Positions 3,645 to 15,977 of a DNA stretch of 64,000 nucleotides are shown here, in pieces. Position 1 is the stretch's first letter, and each line of letters begins with the position of its first letter. The stretch lies in the NCBI GenBank assembly GCA_947085985.1, contig CAMTYL010000003.1, positions 137,239 through 201,238 of the forward strand. Reading direction: 5' to 3'. Below the pieces are notes generated by a model. The model worked only from the letters and a program-made list of their open reading frames with translations, was not told the origin of the DNA and did no database searches. The translations under genes and the position numbers were made by a program. The DNA comes from an uncultured bacterium. Lineage in GTDB: Bacteria > Patescibacteriota > Minisyncoccia > Phycocordibacterales > Phycocordibacteraceae.

Positions 3645-4195
3645 ACGTCTGTTTCTGCTAACTCCTTACGTGCCTCCCCTTCGGCTATCGCTCCTGCAAG
3701 CTCACTGTAGCGCGGCAAATCCTCTCGGCGGCTCACGCCAAGGTGTGCGAGCGCGTCCACGGTAGCGCGGTAGCGTGCGCGTCGCTTGTCTGCCTCGTCT
3801 TCGCCGCGCTCAATGAGTCCACGAAGCAGAAGTGCACGAAGTGCGGCTGCAGAGTTAACCCCACGTACCCAATCAATGTCGGTGCGTGTTGCCGTGCCTC
3901 GGTACAAAATAATGGCGAGTGTTTCTAGGGACGCCTTTCCAAGGTCGCGTGAGAGCTCGCTCTCTCGTAGCTTCTTCACGATGTCTGCTGCCCACGGGCT
4001 GGTACGAAGCTCCAGCTCTGATTCTGTTTCAACGACGGCCAGACCGCGCGCTGCAAGCGAAACTACCAAATCATCCACGGCAAGCACGAGGGTGTGTGCA
4101 GAAAAATCCAGCAGAGCGCATATCTGCTTTTTGGTAAGCGGGCCCCCTTCTGCAAACAAGAGTGCTTCCAGCTGTGCCGAAGGAGAAAGTGTCAT
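3641..4195 (-). CDS. scpB: Segregation and condensation protein B (ScpB)
   Basis: SPSAQLEALLFAEGGPLTKKQICALL... is typical of the ScpB winged-helix N-terminus. It follows scpA. The start was trimmed to the internal Met to avoid overlap. Confidence 0.7.
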   Translation of the reverse strand: MTLSPSAQLEALLFAEGGPLTKKQICALLDFSAHTLVLAVDDLVVSLAARGLAVVETESELELRTSPWAADIVKKLRESELSRDLGKASLETLAIILYRGTATRTDIDWVRGVNSAAALRALLLRGLIERGEDEADKRRARYRATVDALAHLGVSRREDLPRYSELAGAIAEGEARKELAETDV

Positions 4196-5175: not shown

Positions 5176-6615
5176 CTACTTCTGCCACGATTCTATAAAT
5201 GTATATAGCAGTCGTACTGGTTCCCCAGCCGCACCCTTGGCAAGCTCGTCGCCAGGAGCGCTCGTCATGCGAGGAGCAATGTCCAAGTGTGCCCACGGAC
5301 ACCCAAGCTCCTTTGCAAACTGCCAGAGGAACATGCCGCCATTAGTAGCGCTCGCGTAGCGACCAGCTCCTCCTGATACGGAGTTAGCAACATCGGCAAC
5401 ACCACTTTTTACCGAATCCTCGTACACGTCCCACATAGGAAGACGCCAGAGGTAGTCCCCCGCTGTTTCAGAAAGTGTCAGAAGCTGATCGGCGAGTTTG
5501 TCGTCACGCGTCAACAGTCCGCTTGCGTACAGGCCAAGTGCTGAAAGCGAACCGCCGGTAAGCGTTGCCACATCAATCACTACAGAAGGAGCGAGACGCT
5601 TTGCATAGGTGAGTGCGTCAGCAAGTACGAGGCGCCCCTCTGCGTCGGTATTAATCACCTCAATAGTCTTGCCAGAAAGTGAGGTGAGAATGTCGTGCGG
5701 ACGTAGTGAATTGCCACCCGGCATATTCTCTGCAGCAGGGATAAGTCCGATGACGTGCTTCTCACTCTTCAGCTTAGCTGCAAGCGCAACAGCATGTATG
5801 ACAGAGGCAGCACCCGACATATCCATGTGCATTTCGTGCCCGTCGCCGTTCTTTAGGTTGATGCCTCCCGAGTCAAAGGTGATGCCTTTTCCAGCAAGCA
5901 CAATTGGCCCGCCTCGACTCGCCTTCTTCGGCGAGGCGGGCCGACCTGCCCCACCCTTGTACTCAAGAATGGTAAAAGTCGGCGCCTCTACCGAGCCCCG
6001 ACCCACCCCAAGAATTGCCCCCATACCGAGCTTTTTCATCTCGGGTACTCCCAGAGTGAGCACCGTCACGGGAAGGCCCGCTACGGCCAATTTAGCCGCC
6101 TTGGCGAGGCTTTTAGGGGTCATATCGCCGCCTGGCGTGTTCGCGAGCTCGCGGCAAGCATTTACTTCCTCACCTATCACCTGCCCCTTCTTAAACCCAC
6201 CCTGAACAGCCTTCGAAGTTGCTCCGCAGATGCATACGTCGGTGACTCCACGGAATCCGTCTTTGGGCTCCGTCTTGTACGTAGTGAACTCGTAGGTCGC
6301 CATTAGCAAGTTCTGCGCAATGAGCGAGGCGAGGTCGGGCGCCTCTATACTTTTCAGTTTTGGAAACACAGCGAGTGGAAAATCAAAAGCAATTTTCTTT
6401 ACGCGCTCCTTCTTTGCAGTTTGTGCAATAGAGCGCACGAGTGGCACAAAGGTGCGTAGTGCTATCTCGCTTCGCTTACCTGTTCCTATTTCCAAATATA
6501 CTTCACTCCCTTCGCGCACGAGGCGGCGCGTTCCCTTTTGGTCTTCGGTGAGTCGTACACGGGTGAATCCCTTCGGTGCTTTGGTAAGAGGCCCGCTCGT
6601 GAACGTGAACTTCAT
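5176..6615 (-). CDS. pepA: Leucyl aminopeptidase (M17 family)
   Basis: NTDAEGRLVLADAL active-site signature and M17 C-terminal domain; 479 aa. Confidence 0.85.
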   Translation of the reverse strand: MKFTFTSGPLTKAPKGFTRVRLTEDQKGTRRLVREGSEVYLEIGTGKRSEIALRTFVPLVRSIAQTAKKERVKKIAFDFPLAVFPKLKSIEAPDLASLIAQNLLMATYEFTTYKTEPKDGFRGVTDVCICGATSKAVQGGFKKGQVIGEEVNACRELANTPGGDMTPKSLAKAAKLAVAGLPVTVLTLGVPEMKKLGMGAILGVGRGSVEAPTFTILEYKGGAGRPASPKKASRGGPIVLAGKGITFDSGGINLKNGDGHEMHMDMSGAASVIHAVALAAKLKSEKHVIGLIPAAENMPGGNSLRPHDILTSLSGKTIEVINTDAEGRLVLADALTYAKRLAPSVVIDVATLTGGSLSALGLYASGLLTRDDKLADQLLTLSETAGDYLWRLPMWDVYEDSVKSGVADVANSVSGGAGRYASATNGGMFLWQFAKELGCPWAHLDIAPRMTSAPGDELAKGAAGEPVRLLYTFIESWQK

Positions 6616-8422: not shown

Positions 8423-9376
8423 CTAGCGTACACCCACTGCCTTTCGTACCTGCTTCATTTTCTCTTCCGCTTTCTTGTTGGCCTTCTTACCCCCCTCGTT
8501 CAAAATCTTTAGAACCTTTTCTGGATTCTTCCCGAGTAGTTCATATCGCGCACGCATCGGTGCAATGAACGCGTCCAAATCTTCTACCAGCGCGTCTTTG
8601 AGCGCCTTGTAGCGTCCACGGTGCTCTTCATAGAGTGGCGCGAGTTGTTCCGCAGATTTCACCAGCTTGTGAATCGCGTACACGTTGGTTGGCACATCTC
8701 CGTCAGAGTCGGTGACAATACCCATAACTTTTTGAGTAATTTCTTCGCGGCTAGCGAACAGAGGAATGGTATTGCCGTAGCTCTTGCTCATCTTCTGCCC
8801 ATCTACTCCTGGCACAATAGCGACCTCGGGCACAATCATTTCTGCAGGAAGTCGGAACACTTCCTCATAGGTGCGGTTGAACTTCTCCGCAGCGTCACGC
8901 GCGTACTCTATGTGCTGCTTCTGGTCTTGCCCCACAGGCACCGTGGCCGTGTCGTAGAGCAGAATGTCGGCCGCCATCAGCATGGGGTAATTAAAGGTGC
9001 CCACGACAATTTCTTTATTCTTTGCTTCTGCGTCTTTAAAGGCGTGTGCGCGCATCAAGTACGGCATGGTGGTGATGGTGTCAAAAATCCACGCCAGTTC
9101 AGTGTGGGCAGAAACATCTGACTGCTTAAACATCACTGACTTCTTTGGGTCTATACCTATAGCCAAGAAGGTGCGAGCAAGCTCTAGCGTGAGTGCTCGC
9201 ATTTGCTCCCCATTCTGCACACTGTTGAGTGCGTGGTAGTCAGCAATCATAAAGAAGCACTCATGGGTGCCGCGATTCTGCATATCCACGAACTGCTTGA
9301 GTGCACCAAAATAGTTGCCAATGTGTGGCTCCCCTGTTGGCTTAATGCCAGAAAGTAGAATAGGCTTCTTGTTCAT
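8423..9376 (-). CDS. trpS: Tryptophanyl-tRNA synthetase (housekeeping copy)
   Basis: HIGH-region variant (KPTGEPHIGNYFGAL) and KMSKS; 317 aa class Ic. Confidence 0.85.
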   Translation of the reverse strand: MNKKPILLSGIKPTGEPHIGNYFGALKQFVDMQNRGTHECFFMIADYHALNSVQNGEQMRALTLELARTFLAIGIDPKKSVMFKQSDVSAHTELAWIFDTITTMPYLMRAHAFKDAEAKNKEIVVGTFNYPMLMAADILLYDTATVPVGQDQKQHIEYARDAAEKFNRTYEEVFRLPAEMIVPEVAIVPGVDGQKMSKSYGNTIPLFASREEITQKVMGIVTDSDGDVPTNVYAIHKLVKSAEQLAPLYEEHRGRYKALKDALVEDLDAFIAPMRARYELLGKNPEKVLKILNEGGKKANKKAEEKMKQVRKAVGVR

Positions 9377-10880: not shown

Positions 10881-11462
10881 CTACTCGGCGTCGTCGCCTT
10901 TCGCTCTCAGCTGGGTCTCCACAGCCAGCTCCGGACCGGGGTCTTCACGCGGTTCGGGTGCAGGAAGCTCGGCCAGCTCGCCGCTCTTGGTGGTGGTGCC
11001 GAGGCGCAGAGCTTGAAGTTCGCTCTGTAGACCTTGGGTGTCCTCGTCAAACGCCCTTTGAACCGCGGTTCGTCGCTCTTCAATGAGAGTCTCGAGCTCC
11101 TTGATACGGGCGCGCACAGGAGCCGCGGTGTTGATGCGGTCCGAGGCGTTCGTCAGAATACTGCGCAAAAGCGCAGTGACGCTGACCGTTTCCCCGTCCG
11201 TAACGTACCCGCCCTCGGTCAGGATAGCCTCCACCGATTCCCCCTGCTCCTCGGCGAGCTTGTCCCAGATGTAGCCAGGAATCTTAGCGTTGAGGTCGAG
11301 AGTGCCAGTCGCCTGAATCTCTTCCTTGATGATTTCTTCGCAGAGGACGACGCACTCATCGCAGATGTTGACTGTGGGTCCGGCGATCAACTTGCGGACT
11401 TCGTGTTGGCTCTTACTGCAGAAAGAGCAGTACAAGGTAGTTCTGGCTTTGGCGTCGCTCAT
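10881..11462 (-). CDS. ClpX-type C4 zinc-binding domain protein with no AAA+ module
   Basis: N-terminus [37 protein letters not shown] is a near-consensus ClpX ZBD. The remaining ~140 aa is acidic/coiled-coil-like and has no Walker motifs. Confidence 0.6.
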
Positions 11463-11481
11463 GACGACATCCTCCATGACA

Positions 11482-13727
11482 TTACAATGAAACAAAAGGG
11501 CTCACCTTGTGTGAGCAACCAGTGGCAACCATACAAGCAGAATCGCTTAGTGTCTGCTGTCTAGCTTGGAGGGCTGCCAGTTGCGCGAGAAGTGCGGCAA
11601 GCTTAGCCTGCATGTCTGCCATAGATGGCGTAGGAGATACTGTCGCCACGGGCGTACCAGTCTGACCCTGATTCAGCAGTGCTCTGGTTTGTGGACCCGC
11701 TCTTCCGACTGACTGGAGTCCGCGCGCAGCCTGGAAAGCTGAAACAGCGCTTGCCGTGAGGGGGCCAAAGTAGCCTGTGATTGGCCCTGTATAAAATCCA
11801 AGAGAAGTGAGGGTGCGCTGTAACTCGGTCACGTCAGTTCCGGTGCTACCTACCGAAAGATCGCGAGCAAAGGTGTATGTCGCTGCACCAAGTACGCGCG
11901 GAGCCTCCTGTACCGCGGTAAGTGGTCGCGCAACAGATACAGGAGTCGTTGCACGGGTGATGGTTGAACTACCTCCCCCTCCACCACCACGAGACGATGA
12001 TGAACCTCCACCCCCGCCCCCTCCACCACCTCCCCCACTACTTACGACAGGTGCAGAGACTATAACGTTGCGCTCCGTTGTTGTTGCGATATTCCCCGCC
12101 GTGTCTGTCGCGTTATACAGGAGGGTGTATATGTTAGCAGCACTTGTATTCACATTACCTACTCCCATTATCGTGGTGGTCGCGTCTGTGTTATCGGTCA
12201 CGGTAGCGCCCGGGTCGGTGAACACGTCCCCGACGGTGAGATGCATGGGATTGCTACCAATGAGGGTGATGATGGGTGGTTCTGTGTCGGTGACTATTGG
12301 GGTGGTCGTTGCAACTACTGAGACAAGTGCATTGTATGCGTTGAGACGCTTTCCTGAGACGGTTTTTCCAGAAAGCGTTTCAAGCTCATCCCCGCTGTCC
12401 ATAAGTGCGGCTTTCACTTGTGCTGCACTGAGTGACGGATCATACGACCACAGCAGTGCCGCTACTCCCGAAACATAGGGGGCTGACATGGAAGTGCCAG
12501 TCTTATAGCTGTACCCGCCTAGCGGAATGGTGCTCCGGATGTTTGAGCCAGGAGCAGCTAAGTCCACACTCGTTGTTCCATAGTTGGAATAAGAGGTGAG
12601 GGAGTCAAAAGCGTCGGTCGCAGCAACACTTATGATGGCTGGCAAATCATAGCTTGCGGGGTACACCGGGTTTTCGGGGGCATCTAGATCTCTGCCGCCA
12701 TTACCCGCAGAAGCGACAAACAAGCCGCCCGAATTTTGGAATCGCTCTATAGCATCGTATTCAGCTTGCGAAAAACTGTCGCCTCCGAAGCTCGCGTTAA
12801 TAATCTTTGCGCCGTTTGCTATGGCAAAATCTATGGCTCGTATCTCGGTCACAGTATCAAGAGCAAAACGAAGCGCCATAATCTTTGCTCCATATGCAAT
12901 ACCAACCACACCCACGTCGTCATGCACTGCAGCAATAATGCCGGATACGTGTGTGCCGTGCGCGCTCGTGCTGTCGGTTGTGGTAGCGCGTGGGTCGCTG
13001 GTGCTGTATTCAAAGTCGTATCCGTGTATGCAGCTCCACGAAGTGGTGCCTGTCTCGCTCACGCAGGAACTTCCGTCCCACATGTTGTTCATGAGCTCTG
13101 GGTGCGTATAGTCAACGCCCGTATCAATCACAGCCACGGTTACGGCAGTCCCTGAAGCAATGTCCCATGCGGACAGTGCGTCAATATCAGCACCCAGGGT
13201 ACCCGTTATGCTGTTTACCGTCTGTCCTGTGTTGTAGAGTGCCCACGAGTTTGCAAGCTCCACACTCGTTGTCGCAAGCACCTCTACGGAGCGGATGTAG
13301 TTTGGCTCCGCATACTTCACTGCAGGGTTAGATTCAAGGTCAGCTATTGCTTGTGCCACTGATAACTGCGCAGTAGTTTTTACCACGGCCATGTTCATGC
13401 CGTGAATGATGTCAACAGTTTCCAAGGAAAGAGATTCCGTCACCGTTTCCGCCTTCTGCTGGTCTGCGTGGTCTGTCAGGTCTATACGGGATTCCTTGTA
13501 TTTTACAATCACCTCACCCTCCACATAGGTGCCAGAGAGCGGCTCTATCTTCTCAATAGGTTCGGTGGACGGTTCCAATACAATAGTCAGTATCTCTGTT
13601 GGGCTCGCAACTGGCTCAGTGGAAGTCTCTACAACGAGCGTTTGTTCGGGTGCCTCCTGAGCAACTGCGAAAGTTGGTGCGCTACTAAGTAGCACAATGA
13701 GCATGAGGGCGAAAGCGCGTCGCATAG
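11482..13727 (-). CDS. Secreted subtilisin-like serine protease (S8) with a poly-Gly linker and a C-terminal peptidoglycan-binding domain
   Basis: Signal peptide [25 protein letters not shown]. Catalytic D (VAVIDTGVD), H (HGTHVSG) and S ([11 protein letters not shown]). [24 protein letters not shown] linker. PG_binding_1-like ...[33 protein letters not shown]. Confidence 0.85.
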
Positions 13728-13790
13728 TATCTATAGTATAGCTGAGCTTGGGCGGGAAATGAAAAGACCCCTGACGGGGTTTTTCAGTTG

Positions 13791-13873
13791 TGCGCCGGGA
13801 AGGATTCGAACCTTCGTAGGCCGAAGCCGCGGGATTTACAGTCCCGTTCAATTGACCGCTCTGACACCGACGC
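13791..13873 (-). tRNA. tRNA-Tyr (anticodon GTA), type II with a long variable arm
   Basis: Reverse complement GCGTCGG-TG-TCAGAGCGGTCAATTGAAC-GGGACTGTAAATCCC-GCGGCTTCGGCCTACG-AAGGTTCGAATCCTT-CCCGGCGCA. It has a 7-bp acceptor stem (one G-U), anticodon loop CTGTAAA, long variable arm, and GTTCGAATC T-loop. Confidence 0.8.
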
Positions 13874-14648
13874 TTTCAATATGTCTATACCTCCGAAGGT
13901 GCTTTGTGTTGGCAGGTTCTATCTCCTGAAAGAACCTTTTAATGTCTGGTCTTCTTGTTAGATACACCCTCCACGAACCAACTTCGGATGGTGTGTATTG
14001 TAGCGTAAGTAGCATCCTCCGTAAAGAATGAAGTAAGGGTAAGGATTTATTTGTCAGGGAGACCTGTATACCGTGACGGATTCTATATATGGAACCGTCT
14101 GTGTCAAAAAATCCCCGCAGAAAAGCAGTCATATATTCCCTCTCCTTAAACACCCAGGAAGGCACGTCCACCTGCAGAGCAACCTTGTTTCGCACTAACC
14201 CTTCATTCTCGAGCCAAGAGGTTAGAGCTACTGAGCCAATGTAGACATCTCTGTACCCGTCCTGCCGTACAAGAATAGTTGCCTCTACACCAAACAAAGA
14301 CTGCATAAGCGAAGCAACATACTCAACGTACTCAAGCTCCTTTGTGCCAAGAGTAACGATAGTTTGAAAGCGTGATATGTGCCCGTCACCAAGCATAATT
14401 CCAAAGAACTCTGCCAAAGGTGCGGAGTACTCGGTGGGTATTCGAATGTCTCGCCTCATATTTCGGAAGCCTTTCTTTAGTTCGGGAGAGCTCTGAATGT
14501 TTAATCTTCTAAGTCGCAGAAAAACCGAACTCTGTGCTATGCCCAGAATATGTGCAACTTCAGAAATTGATTTATTTTCGCGCACGTACAAACGCTCAAG
14601 CTCAGTTCTGTACGTCTTCTCTTCTGCTGCGTTCCAGCGTCTGGCCAT
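13848..14648 (-). CDS. Free-standing LAGLIDADG-type homing endonuclease (two motifs) with an N-terminal sigma-70 region-4-like HTH
   Basis: Two LAGLIDADG motifs (GIMLGDGHI and GFFDTDGSI). N-terminal HTH ...KSISEVAHILGIAQSSVFLRLRRL. Its last ~8 codons overlap the 5' half of tRNA-Tyr. Confidence 0.65.
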   Translation of the reverse strand: MARRWNAAEEKTYRTELERLYVRENKSISEVAHILGIAQSSVFLRLRRLNIQSSPELKKGFRNMRRDIRIPTEYSAPLAEFFGIMLGDGHISRFQTIVTLGTKELEYVEYVASLMQSLFGVEATILVRQDGYRDVYIGSVALTSWLENEGLVRNKVALQVDVPSWVFKEREYMTAFLRGFFDTDGSIYRIRHGIQVSLTNKSLPLLHSLRRMLLTLQYTPSEVGSWRVYLTRRPDIKRFFQEIEPANTKHLRRYRHIESVGVRAVN

Positions 14649-14717
14649 TAGTACATTATACAGCTATTCTATGTTAACCACTTTTGTACTTGTGAATAAA
14701 TAATTCTCCCTGTACTT

Positions 14718-15977
14718 TTACTGCGCTCGTGAAAGAAGTGCAGTCTGCTTTCCCTTGCGTAGGAGTGCCACCCCGCCTGCAAACTGACTCTCCGAGAGCG
14801 TTGCTTCGGCCGAATCCACTGTTGTTCCACTTACGGATACCCCACCCCCCTCAATAAGCCGACGCGCATCTCCCTTTGACTTTGAAAGCCCCGACGCAAT
14901 GAGTGCATCAACGACGCTCATGCTCACGGATACCGTTGCACTCGGTACTTCCTTGCGAACAGTCGCTAATGTCGCAGCTGGCAGCTCAGCTAACGGTGTG
15001 GATCCGTACACTGCCTCTGATGCTGCCTCAACCCGTAGCGCGGTTTCAGTGCCGTGGACAATCTCTGTAACGAGGCGCGCAAGCATCTTCTGGGCCTCGC
15101 GCTTCCCTGGGTTTCTGCCGTGGAGTACCATCATGGTTTCAATTTCAAATGTAGACATGAACGTGAAGAACTTCAGGTACTTCTCCACCATCTCGTCCGG
15201 CTGATTGAGCCAGAATTGGTAGAACTGGTACGGGCTGGTCTTGGTAGCGTCCAACCACACCGCGTTCCCTTCAGACTTTCCAAACTTCTTTCCATTTGCC
15301 TCAGTCACGAGCGGACAGGTTATGGCAAATGCCTCCTTCCCTTCCTTGCGGCGGATAAGCTCCACGCCAGAGAGAATGTTGGTCCACTGGTCGCTTGCTC
15401 CAATTTGTAGGTCAACGCCGTACTTCTTATTGAGTACAAGATAGTCGTAGCCTTGGAGGAGTGAGTACGCGAACTCGGTGTATGAAATGCTGTCGTTGGG
15501 GTCCTCTATACGGCGCTTAATGATGTCGCGCTTGATAAGTTCGTTTACCGTGAAGTGTTTGCCAATGTCGCGTAGGAAATCCACGAGCGGCACCTTTAGG
15601 AGCCAATCGGCATTGTCCACCACGCGCACCTTTACGCCTACGATGCGTTGCATCTGTGCTTTGAGTGCTTTCTTGTTCTTCTCCACGAGCTTCTTGTCAG
15701 CAAGGGTGCGCTCACCGCTCTCACGAGGGTCTCCAATCATGCCCGTCCCTCCTCCAACAAGCAAAATGATGGTGTGACCCGCTTGTGCGAGACGACGCAT
15801 GAACAAGACCACGAGCAGGTTCCCTGCGTGCATAGAGTCTGCGGACGGGTCCACGCCCAAGTACACCGTACGCTTGGCGCCGAGAATCTTCTCAATATCT
15901 GCTGACGTGTGCTCTACGAGCCCGCGTGCCTGTAGGTCCTTTGCTAAATCCATGTGTGTGAGTATACCAGAGCTCAA
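14718..15977 (-). CDS. tyrS: Tyrosyl-tRNA synthetase with a C-terminal S4 domain
   Basis: GVDPSADSMHAGNLLV (HIGH region), KFGKS (KMSKS) and a C-terminal S4-like RNA-binding domain; 419 aa. Confidence 0.85.
   Translation of the reverse strand: MSSGILTHMDLAKDLQARGLVEHTSADIEKILGAKRTVYLGVDPSADSMHAGNLLVVLFMRRLAQAGHTIILLVGGGTGMIGDPRESGERTLADKKLVEKNKKALKAQMQRIVGVKVRVVDNADWLLKVPLVDFLRDIGKHFTVNELIKRDIIKRRIEDPNDSISYTEFAYSLLQGYDYLVLNKKYGVDLQIGASDQWTNILSGVELIRRKEGKEAFAITCPLVTEANGKKFGKSEGNAVWLDATKTSPYQFYQFWLNQPDEMVEKYLKFFTFMSTFEIETMMVLHGRNPGKREAQKMLARLVTEIVHGTETALRVEAASEAVYGSTPLAELPAATLATVRKEVPSATVSVSMSVVDALIASGLSKSKGDARRLIEGGGVSVSGTTVDSAEATLSESQFAGGVALLRKGKQTALLSRAQ

Follow-up and report, generated by a model that had tools for sequence, protein, structure and literature searches.

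Background

Homing endonuclease genes (HEGs) residing outside introns and inteins are known from phages, where the Seg and Mob families of T4 (with SegB in a tRNA cluster) home without an intron: these GIY-YIG or HNH enzymes, encoded in phage genomes, break the HEG-free allele, the flanks are co-converted, and the donor is protected by differences in its target. The LAGLIDADG fold has also given rise to WhiA, a transcription factor which has lost the catalytic residues, has a C-terminal helix-turn-helix (HTH) and is conserved across whole phyla. In the fungal mitochondrial elements called mORFs, described from atp6 of Allomyces macrogynus and from atp6, atp9, cox2 and nad3 of Glomus, an endonuclease open reading frame (ORF) is combined with a foreign gene end (PMC3630166), and the LAGLIDADG endonucleases in rRNA insertions of Candidate Phyla Radiation (CPR) bacteria, such as I-ShaI, are mostly single-domain homodimers lying in intron-like insertions that are removed from the rRNA (PMC11270868). 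Here we describe a LAGLIDADG-type HEG reading into the 5' end of the gene for tRNA-Tyr(GTA) in a 64,000-nt stretch of DNA (hereafter the window; contig CAMTYL010000003.1, positions 137,239 to 201,238, of GenBank assembly GCA_947085985.1) from an uncultured member of the Patescibacteriota.

We consider it probable, though well short of certain, that this is a free-standing HEG which inserted into tRNA-Tyr together with a replacement for the 5' part of the tRNA gene, presumably one resistant to cleavage; the locus has the look of a selfish cut-and-rescue element rather than of a domesticated regulator, since part of the original front end is still found, as a stub, upstream. As in the mORFs, a LAGLIDADG or GIY-YIG ORF adjoins a duplicated piece of its target, the expressed copy being foreign and divergent and the native remnant matching close relatives (PMC3630166). 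The arrangement differs in being on a bacterial chromosome, in involving a tRNA instead of a protein gene, in duplicating the 5' and not the 3' end, in having an ORF that reads into an RNA gene, and in a remnant which appears to be reused as a promoter element; by analogy it is the mirror image of the mORF plus foreign C-terminus plus native C* remnant. Like the Seg and Mob genes of T4, the HEG lies outside introns and inteins, between or next to conserved genes, but the phage HEGs neither duplicate part of their target nor overlap it. The I-ShaI group shares phylum-level hosts, enzyme superfamily and, going by the target deduced here, a highly conserved structural RNA gene as target, whereas the window enzyme is double-domain with an HTH and sits at a tRNA without an intron. 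I-DmoI, I-Tsp061I, PI-PfuI and the Tli VMA endonuclease have the same pseudo-dimeric core, in which each of two motifs contributes one acidic residue, but enzymes of the I-DmoI, I-Tsp061I and intein types are only 17–20% identical in sequence, archaeal, encoded by introns or inteins, and without the N-terminal HTH. WhiA likewise joins an HTH to a LAGLIDADG scaffold and is structurally similar, but the window family differs from it in having the HTH at the N-terminus, in retaining its catalytic residues and in being patchily distributed. Phage and island integrases that target tRNA genes also bring along a part of the tRNA that keeps the gene intact and leave the displaced part as a direct repeat, but these are tyrosine or serine recombinases, usually use the tRNA 3' end, and give identical rather than divergent repeats. 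Full-text literature searches returned tRNA group I introns and rRNA-insertion endonucleases of Patescibacteria, and no description of a HEG arranged in this way in tRNA-Tyr.

Anatomy of the locus

On the minus strand of the window the order is tyrS, a 69-nt spacer, the 266-aa ORF, tRNA-Tyr(GTA), and a hairpin followed by a T run, with the following features:

13848 to 14648, minus strand: the HEG, 266 aa, ATG start and TGA stop, encoding an N-terminal HTH and a two-motif LAGLIDADG core
13790 to 13873, minus strand: tRNA-Tyr(GTA), predicted by ARAGORN (Rfam tRNA 54.4 bits, E 3e-10), which reads as functional
13848 to 13873, minus strand: overlap between the ORF tail (…SVGVRAVN and stop) and tRNA positions 1–26, 26 nt, equal to 8 codons plus stop
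14672 to 14682, minus strand: degenerate tRNA-Tyr 5' remnant AGTGGTTAACA, to be compared with the native-type D-loop AGTGGTCAATTG
14655 to 14671, minus strand: promoter-like -10 elements, TAGAAT (14666–14671) and TATAAT (14655–14660), from the sequence
13757 to 13780, minus strand: intrinsic-terminator-like hairpin ACCCCGTCAGGGGT then a T run, closing the HEG-tRNA unit
14718 to 15953 (or 15977), minus strand: tyrS, tyrosyl-tRNA synthetase, the upstream neighbour, outside the element

The first-pass annotation of the window had recognised the 266-aa ORF and the overlap of its last eight or so codons with the 5' part of the tRNA on the same strand, both of which are borne out, but had let the interval of the gene start at 13791, where the tRNA ends and not the ORF. 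There is no stop codon in the HEG ahead of the tRNA, and the tail is a one-frame reading of the tRNA 5' end. The tRNA is intact and without an intron, as had been proposed, being called by ARAGORN and giving the only Rfam match between 13000 and 16500; a residual group I intron, which had been suggested as something to look for, was not found in that interval, and the ORF begins with a start codon of its own and lacks an extein. In the window tRNA-Tyr the D-stem pair 10-26 is T-A, as against G-C in the common native type. A second copy of the HEG was not found within the window.

Linkage to tRNA-Tyr

A homologue search at E<=1e-3 returned 736 proteins, so that the family numbers at least 736 in Patescibacteria; the best 120 of these 736 are 55–93% identical to the window protein, have about 260–270 aa and belong to Paceibacterota, Kaiserbacteria and Parcubacteria. 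When 1.84 billion cluster representatives were searched with a profile, 271 matched at E<=1e-30, and about 20 of these 271 50%-identity clusters have the full architecture of HTH plus core. Some entries of the family are automatically labelled WhiA in the databases. The view that free-standing HEGs beside tRNA genes are unusual in bacteria is correct in general but not for Patescibacteria, where this family is common. A far larger group of proteins, 320–350 aa in length and taking in at least P0151 to P0270 among the 271 profile matches, shares the LAGLIDADG core (query residues ~55–260) but differs in the N-terminal part, which measures about 120 aa.

In the first loci examined, tRNA-Tyr was present at the end of the ORF in 8/8. 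After pooling these with three carriers from a genome scan (see below) and removing duplicates, there were seven other distinct loci of the window family (family 1), and tRNA-Tyr(GTA) starts within or right at the ORF end in all of them. We then took 80 further metagenome loci, 78 of which had enough downstream sequence to be informative; tRNA-Tyr lies at the end of the ORF, adjoining or overlapping it, in 77 of these, and in all 78 when a tRNA split by an intron (locus L204) is counted, and since the same arrangement recurs in 78/78 the adjacency is far beyond chance. The ORF stop lies between -21 and +39 relative to the tRNA start in the 77 loci, except in L187, whose ORF extends 156 nt into the tRNA. 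The overlaps in relatives measure 6, 10, 15, 22, 31, 37 and 38 nt and use all three frames, and this varying frame and length rules out that the overlap is conserved as coding sequence.

Locus L204, the most divergent member (44% identity), has a tRNA-Tyr with a group I intron (Rfam 62 bits, 3803–3997; locus 3778–4060), which splits the anticodon loop immediately after its CTGT. The split tRNA was overlooked by the tRNA finder and miscalled as a permuted tmRNA by ARAGORN. The intron is separate from the HEG; as this tRNA-Tyr carries a group I intron as well as an adjoining HEG cassette, one tRNA gene hosts both.

The gene upstream varies among loci, with ClpB in most relatives and tyrS or others elsewhere. 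The placement between tyrS and tRNA-Tyr given by the first-pass annotation thus holds in the window, but the tyrS link is incidental because the conserved partner is tRNA-Tyr, and tyrS as functional partner was ruled out since most loci have ClpB or another gene at that place. Viral contigs held only distant LAGLIDADG relatives (<=30% identity) and no member of the family. Three loci (L006, L007 and L008) contain a 186-aa two-motif LAGLIDADG_3 ORF without an HTH (L006 8384–8944, minus strand), which lies 18 nt downstream of tRNA-Leu(CAA) (8963–9047) and overlaps the start of miaA; a stub of tRNA-Leu was not detected around this gene in L006.

The upstream tRNA stub

In many loci a sequence resembling GAGTGGTCAATTGCA, which corresponds to the D-loop and D-stem of the common tRNA-Tyr, is found about 30 nt upstream of the HEG start codon. 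With up to three mismatches allowed, 32 of 79 distinct loci have this motif in the 80 nt before the ORF, compared with an expectation of 0.0027 per 80 nt, and it ends 29–31 nt before the ATG in 20 of the 32 (modal distance 30 nt). Most stubs span tRNA positions ~8–28 and break at the junction of D-arm and anticodon stem, and the best-preserved one, in L163, consists of exactly tRNA positions 1–28. The motif was not found upstream of HEG-free tRNA-Tyr genes, with the exception of a single locus which has a GIY-YIG ORF in the same place.

The stubs share 80–95% identity with the tRNA 5' part of close HEG-free relatives, and resemble the tRNA downstream in their own locus only poorly. The 11-nt stub of the window would not be convincing by itself, and in the closest subfamily (L136, L151, L212 and L213) intermediate forms are found, with GAGTGGTCAATGTTAGAATAG or AGAGTGGTTA...TAGAAT at the place of the stub. 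A target-site duplication, suggested earlier as a check, is accordingly present as the tRNA 5' remnant upstream, and the comparison of sequences gives good support to the duplicated part being the tRNA 5' part, with a native stub upstream and a divergent working tRNA downstream.

Divergence of the working tRNA

The HEG-linked tRNAs themselves were compared with the native-type tRNA-Tyr gene (GCGTCGGTGGCAGAGTGGTCAATTGCAACAGACTGTAAATCTGT...) of HEG-free loci. Between hosts matched for ClpB identity (~87%), the median identity of the tRNA 5' part is 0.96 for pairs of empty sites vs 0.70 for a HEG-linked and an empty site (Mann-Whitney p 1e-9, the pairs not being independent), and that of the 3' part, with the same dependence between pairs, 85% vs 76%. 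Positions G9, G13, T19, T23, C26 and A27 are kept in 85–93% of the listed empty-site tRNAs vs 19–42% of the HEG-linked ones. The tRNA type goes with the clade of the HEG and not with the host, the divergence is greatest in the D-arm, and D-arm type, T-loop type and HEG clade co-vary. Within one Kaiserbacteria-like group, three HEG-bearing relatives each have a tRNA type of their own, as against the common type in the empty ones.

Unusual D-arms (TACTCAAG..., TCGNATAG...) typical of HEG-linked tRNAs were also seen in the HEG-free loci L035, L063, L074, L092, L101, L110, L051, L081, L103, L113 and L114. These may be resistant alleles left after loss of the HEG, or conversions without gain of the HEG, or natural variants.

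Presence, absence and other occupants of the site

A species-level scan (one genome per species) was made with a tRNA 3'-end pattern and gave at least 83 tRNA-Tyr loci of Patescibacteria type; the first genome-wide pattern also caught tRNA-Arg, tRNA-Leu, tRNA-Met and tRNA-Gly of other phyla, which were filtered out. Among the 83 loci listed, 3 carry the HEG and the other 80 are without it, so that the presence/absence polymorphism at orthologous tRNA-Tyr loci, which had been proposed as a check, is indeed found. Most of the listed loci are empty, with either ClpB directly followed by tRNA-Tyr, or tyrS, 27–29 nt and tRNA-Tyr. The latter type (L042, L044, L065, L092 and L106) has a TTGAAA-17-TATAGT promoter in the 27–29-nt gap, and trpS after the tRNA. 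Hosts with 85–93% identical ClpB differ in having the family HEG, a different ORF, or none.

Two of the other ORF types at this site are of nuclease kind or related to it. Family 2, found at eight of the listed loci, consists of 200–220-aa ORFs reading into the 5' end of tRNA-Tyr:

L009, L022 (1712–2317), L034, L059, L067, L076, L079 and L111 (3041–3694): family 2 ORFs, ending at or in tRNA-Tyr

The family 2 proteins have an N-terminal HTH and invariant LYWAEG (LYWAEGYK) and DFANSDP motifs, and gave no Pfam nuclease match. When aligned with the window family by hhalign, their HTH and LYWAEG fall on the HTH and first LAGLIDADG motif (probability 82%, E 1e-5), which suggests that family 2 is probably a single-motif LAGLIDADG relative of the window family. 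Family 2 sits at tRNA position +1, no upstream tRNA stub was found in its loci, and the adjoining tRNAs are of the common type and resemble those of empty sites. The second type is a GIY-YIG ORF (79–96 aa, Pfam E 2e-16) directly upstream of tRNA-Tyr at three listed loci (L029, L125 and L127); in L029 the ORF spans ~5205–5447, tRNA-Tyr begins at 5454, and a tRNA-like stub GGGTGGTCAATTGCG lies ahead of the ORF. Taken over the listed loci, about one in six tRNA-Tyr genes has a nuclease-type ORF on its 5' side.

Expression signals

In the window the TATAAT hexamer ends exactly 6 nt ahead of the ATG, and because of this spacing a leaderless mRNA is predicted. The same geometry is common in the family: of 51 loci whose protein begins with the canonical MARRW, 38 have a TAnnnT hexamer exactly 6 nt before the start codon (consensus TG.TATaAT), and a Shine-Dalgarno-like motif is found in only one. 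Within the stub, TTGCAA precedes the -10 hexamer by 17 nt. From these signals we infer a leaderless HEG mRNA which runs on through the tRNA as far as the terminator. As the ORF enters the tRNA without a gap, one may speculate that RNase P processing would strip the HEG of its stop codon, and that a nonsense mutation in the ORF might have a polar effect on the tRNA. A promoter internal to the 3' end of the ORF was considered as well, but while a -10-like hexamer occurs 12–18 nt before the tRNA in the window and in L012, other loci are without it, and it was rejected as a general feature.

The encoded protein

With regard to the protein, the two LAGLIDADG motifs reported by the first-pass annotation are confirmed by a Pfam LAGLIDADG_3 match (E 2e-21, in two stretches), which also answers the proposed profile check, by the invariance of both catalytic residues, and by the modelled fold. 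The domains are as follows:

14382 to 14408, minus strand: LAGLIDADG motif 1 (FFGIMLGDG, catalytic D88); G83, G87, D88 and G89 invariant in alignment A1
14091 to 14123, minus strand: LAGLIDADG motif 2 (FLRGFFDTDGS, catalytic D184); G179 to S186 invariant in alignment A1
14505 to 14630, minus strand: N-terminal three-helix HTH, residues 7–48; AlphaFold helices 7–23, 28–35 and 39–48

D88, D184 and about 60 other columns are invariant among 27 aligned homologues. An AlphaFold model based on 27 homologues (pLDDT 88.9) has a three-helix N-terminal domain, a flexible linker, and a core with a double alpha-beta-beta-alpha-beta-beta-alpha arrangement. The top Foldseek matches in the PDB are the Tli VMA intein endonuclease, I-Tsp061I and I-DmoI, each with probability 1.00 (E 8e-11 to 1e-6); WhiA and maturases are also among the structural matches and rank lower. 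A sequence search of the PDB matched 7qsu (E 1e-7), and Pfam LAGLIDADG_WhiA scored 23.1 bits, under its 23.2-bit cut-off. The HTH predicted earlier is real as a fold, but its assignment to the sigma-70 region 4 type is not established because the Pfam and NCBIfam HTH matches were all sub-threshold (E 0.007–0.15); matches in the PDB were weak, and we assign the domain to no class. The ratio of nonsynonymous to synonymous substitution rates (dN/dS) is 0.07–0.19 across comparisons within the family and 0.10–0.14 between the window HEG and its close relatives L213 and L212, and by this measure the window HEG is still under purifying selection. On sequence and model, the gene is of the intact, free-standing, two-motif LAGLIDADG homing endonuclease type, with predicted cleavage activity and a predicted target.

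Neighbouring genes

The upstream neighbour tyrS is a 411-aa gene with Pfam domains tRNA-synt_1b and SYY_C-terminal, as called in identical contigs. On the other side, 3' of the tRNA terminator, the minus strand at ~11482–13725 encodes a large secreted subtilase-like protein with HGTHVSG, a further motif and a poly-Gly/Ser linker; the automatic call of this ORF overruns the tRNA because of an upstream TTG, and in the relatives L003 and L212 its place is taken by trpS. A 204-aa ORF at 10881–11495 (minus strand) has, judged by its translation only, a ClpX-type zinc-ribbon-like N-terminus and is far shorter than ClpX.

Evolutionary history and alternative explanations

Within the clade of the window, amino acid identities of HEG and tyrS are 93/93, 80/80 and 65/68%. 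In two pairs from comparisons of the window, L212 and L213, dS of the HEG is below that of the adjacent tyrS (0.26 vs 0.61, and 1.34 vs 2.34; small samples), which could reflect more recent exchange of the HEG or sequence constraints. In ClpB-linked loci, ClpB identities of at least 0.90 go with HEG identities of 0.77–0.90, while hosts with 85–88% identical ClpB have HEGs which are only 52–63% identical, or a different nuclease family, or none, and the overall Spearman correlation between HEG and ClpB identity is 0.27. This pattern fits long residence with occasional replacement, gain and loss. The window element appears to be old and vertically inherited, since its stub is degenerate and its HEG divergence tracks that of tyrS.

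These sequence comparisons give good support to the anatomy of the locus, in which an insertion has entered tRNA-Tyr and the 5' part is duplicated, the stub being native and the working tRNA linked to the HEG; the mechanism of cleavage and homing is what we infer from it. The enzyme would cut the native-type tRNA-Tyr near the junction of D-arm and anticodon stem, at positions 26–30, and repair from a HEG-bearing copy would install the HEG together with the replacement 5' part, leaving a tRNA which still works and is a poor target. The stub may persist because it supplies the -35 box (TTGCAA) of a promoter for the leaderless HEG mRNA and, by read-through, for the tRNA, and it probably acts as the left homology arm as well. 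Several observations weigh against such a history. The cut site is deduced only from the breakpoint of the remnants, and resistance is weakly supported for the window copy because hardly more than a single D-stem base pair sets its tRNA apart from the common native type; variant D-arm tRNAs are also present without a HEG. The classic homing cycle predicts some decayed copies, and relics of the HEG were absent from empty sites among the 83 listed loci, even with tblastn at E<=10, where the empty-site sample had been chosen by tRNA 3'-end pattern and comprises the loci as listed. A strain-level pair of filled and empty sites with identical flanks was not found in flank searches, the closest match having ~79% DNA identity and nothing exceeding ~80%. 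There was also no pair in the sample with a HEG much more similar than the host genes, and hence no sign of recent transfer between lineages within it. Among close hosts the divergence of the HEG goes along with that of ClpB or tyrS and proceeds at about the slow pace of tyrS, and such host-tracking evolution would also fit a gene that benefits its host.

A beneficial gene of this kind is what the first-pass annotation had in mind when it suggested domestication as a regulator or maturase-like factor, whether as a WhiA-like transcription factor of the tRNA-Tyr unit or as a factor helping an unusual tRNA-Tyr to fold or mature (RNA chaperone or maturase). The strong purifying selection at a rate similar to that of tyrS, the co-divergence with host genes among close relatives, the lack of pseudogenised copies among the listed loci, the conserved HTH, WhiA among the structural matches and the odd D-arms of HEG-linked tRNAs are all in keeping with it. 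We nevertheless regard it as quite unlikely, given that both catalytic aspartates are invariant, unlike in WhiA, that the gene is missing from most related genomes listed, including hosts with 85–93% identical ClpB, that the same variant tRNA types occur without it, and that there is no intron to mature; moreover, the HTH is N-terminal instead of C-terminal, active intein and intron endonucleases outrank WhiA structurally, two other families of nuclease-type ORFs occupy the same spot elsewhere, and the anatomy is that of an insertion bringing a foreign copy of the target 5' part. The housekeeping-like rate would allow for a component of host benefit or of entrapment. An element which was once mobile and is now trapped is the less improbable of these two, though still unlikely as the full account: with the promoter of the tRNA now beyond the ORF, loss or truncation of the ORF would cost expression of a single-copy essential tRNA (by promoter loss or polarity), and the gene would persist by dependence and not by homing. 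Such entrapment agrees with the promoter geometry upstream of the ORF and the predicted leaderless mRNA, with an ORF that always enters the tRNA without a gap, with the absence of decayed copies among the listed loci, and with vertical inheritance in close hosts. Polarity would, however, keep a reading frame and not the catalytic residues and 60 other invariant columns, nor a dN/dS of ~0.1 over the whole protein, and the lower dS of the HEG in the two pairs hints at more recent exchange; the trapped element is partly compatible with our preferred explanation of an insertion that brought a replacement 5' part. Finally, the HEG might have inserted just upstream of tRNA position +1, the stub being the element's own 5' end (a promoter or binding site picked up once) and the downstream tRNA the host's own, its odd D-arm following host phylogeny. 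A direct repeat alone cannot tell which copy is new, the co-variation of D-arm, T-loop and HEG clade is also expected from vertical descent, and family 2 does sit at +1 without a stub. This explanation seems very improbable to us, because HEG-linked tRNAs differ far more from host-matched HEG-free ones than the latter do among themselves, because three tRNA types occur in the HEG-bearing relatives of the one Kaiserbacteria-like group where the empty sites have the common type, and because the stub resembles the native tRNA of relatives.

Conclusions

Taking the preferred explanation of an insertion with a replacement 5' part one step further, the locus could be a natural "home-and-rescue" gene drive, in which a nuclease destroys the common allele of a single-copy essential tRNA and spreads with a recoded, resistant 5' half, the stub being reused as promoter and homology arm, and at least three nuclease families (two-motif LAGLIDADG, its single-motif relative and GIY-YIG) would compete for the tRNA-Tyr site and so drive fast evolution of the D-arm in Patescibacteria. 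We put this forward tentatively, as a conjecture which could well be wrong.

If the insertion with a replacement part is correct, HEGs need no intron to settle in an essential tRNA gene of bacteria, provided that they supply a replacement for the part they disrupt, a principle previously documented for fungal mitochondrial protein genes and re-invented in synthetic rescue-type gene drives. It would also explain the variable tRNA-Tyr D-arms in some Patescibacteria, as well as the hundreds of LAGLIDADG or WhiA-like annotations next to tRNA-Tyr. For biochemistry the family would be a source of compact monomeric nucleases for which a conserved target of ~20 bp can be predicted, and it is in line with the view that the rRNA and tRNA genes of CPR bacteria are unusually rich in endonuclease-driven elements.

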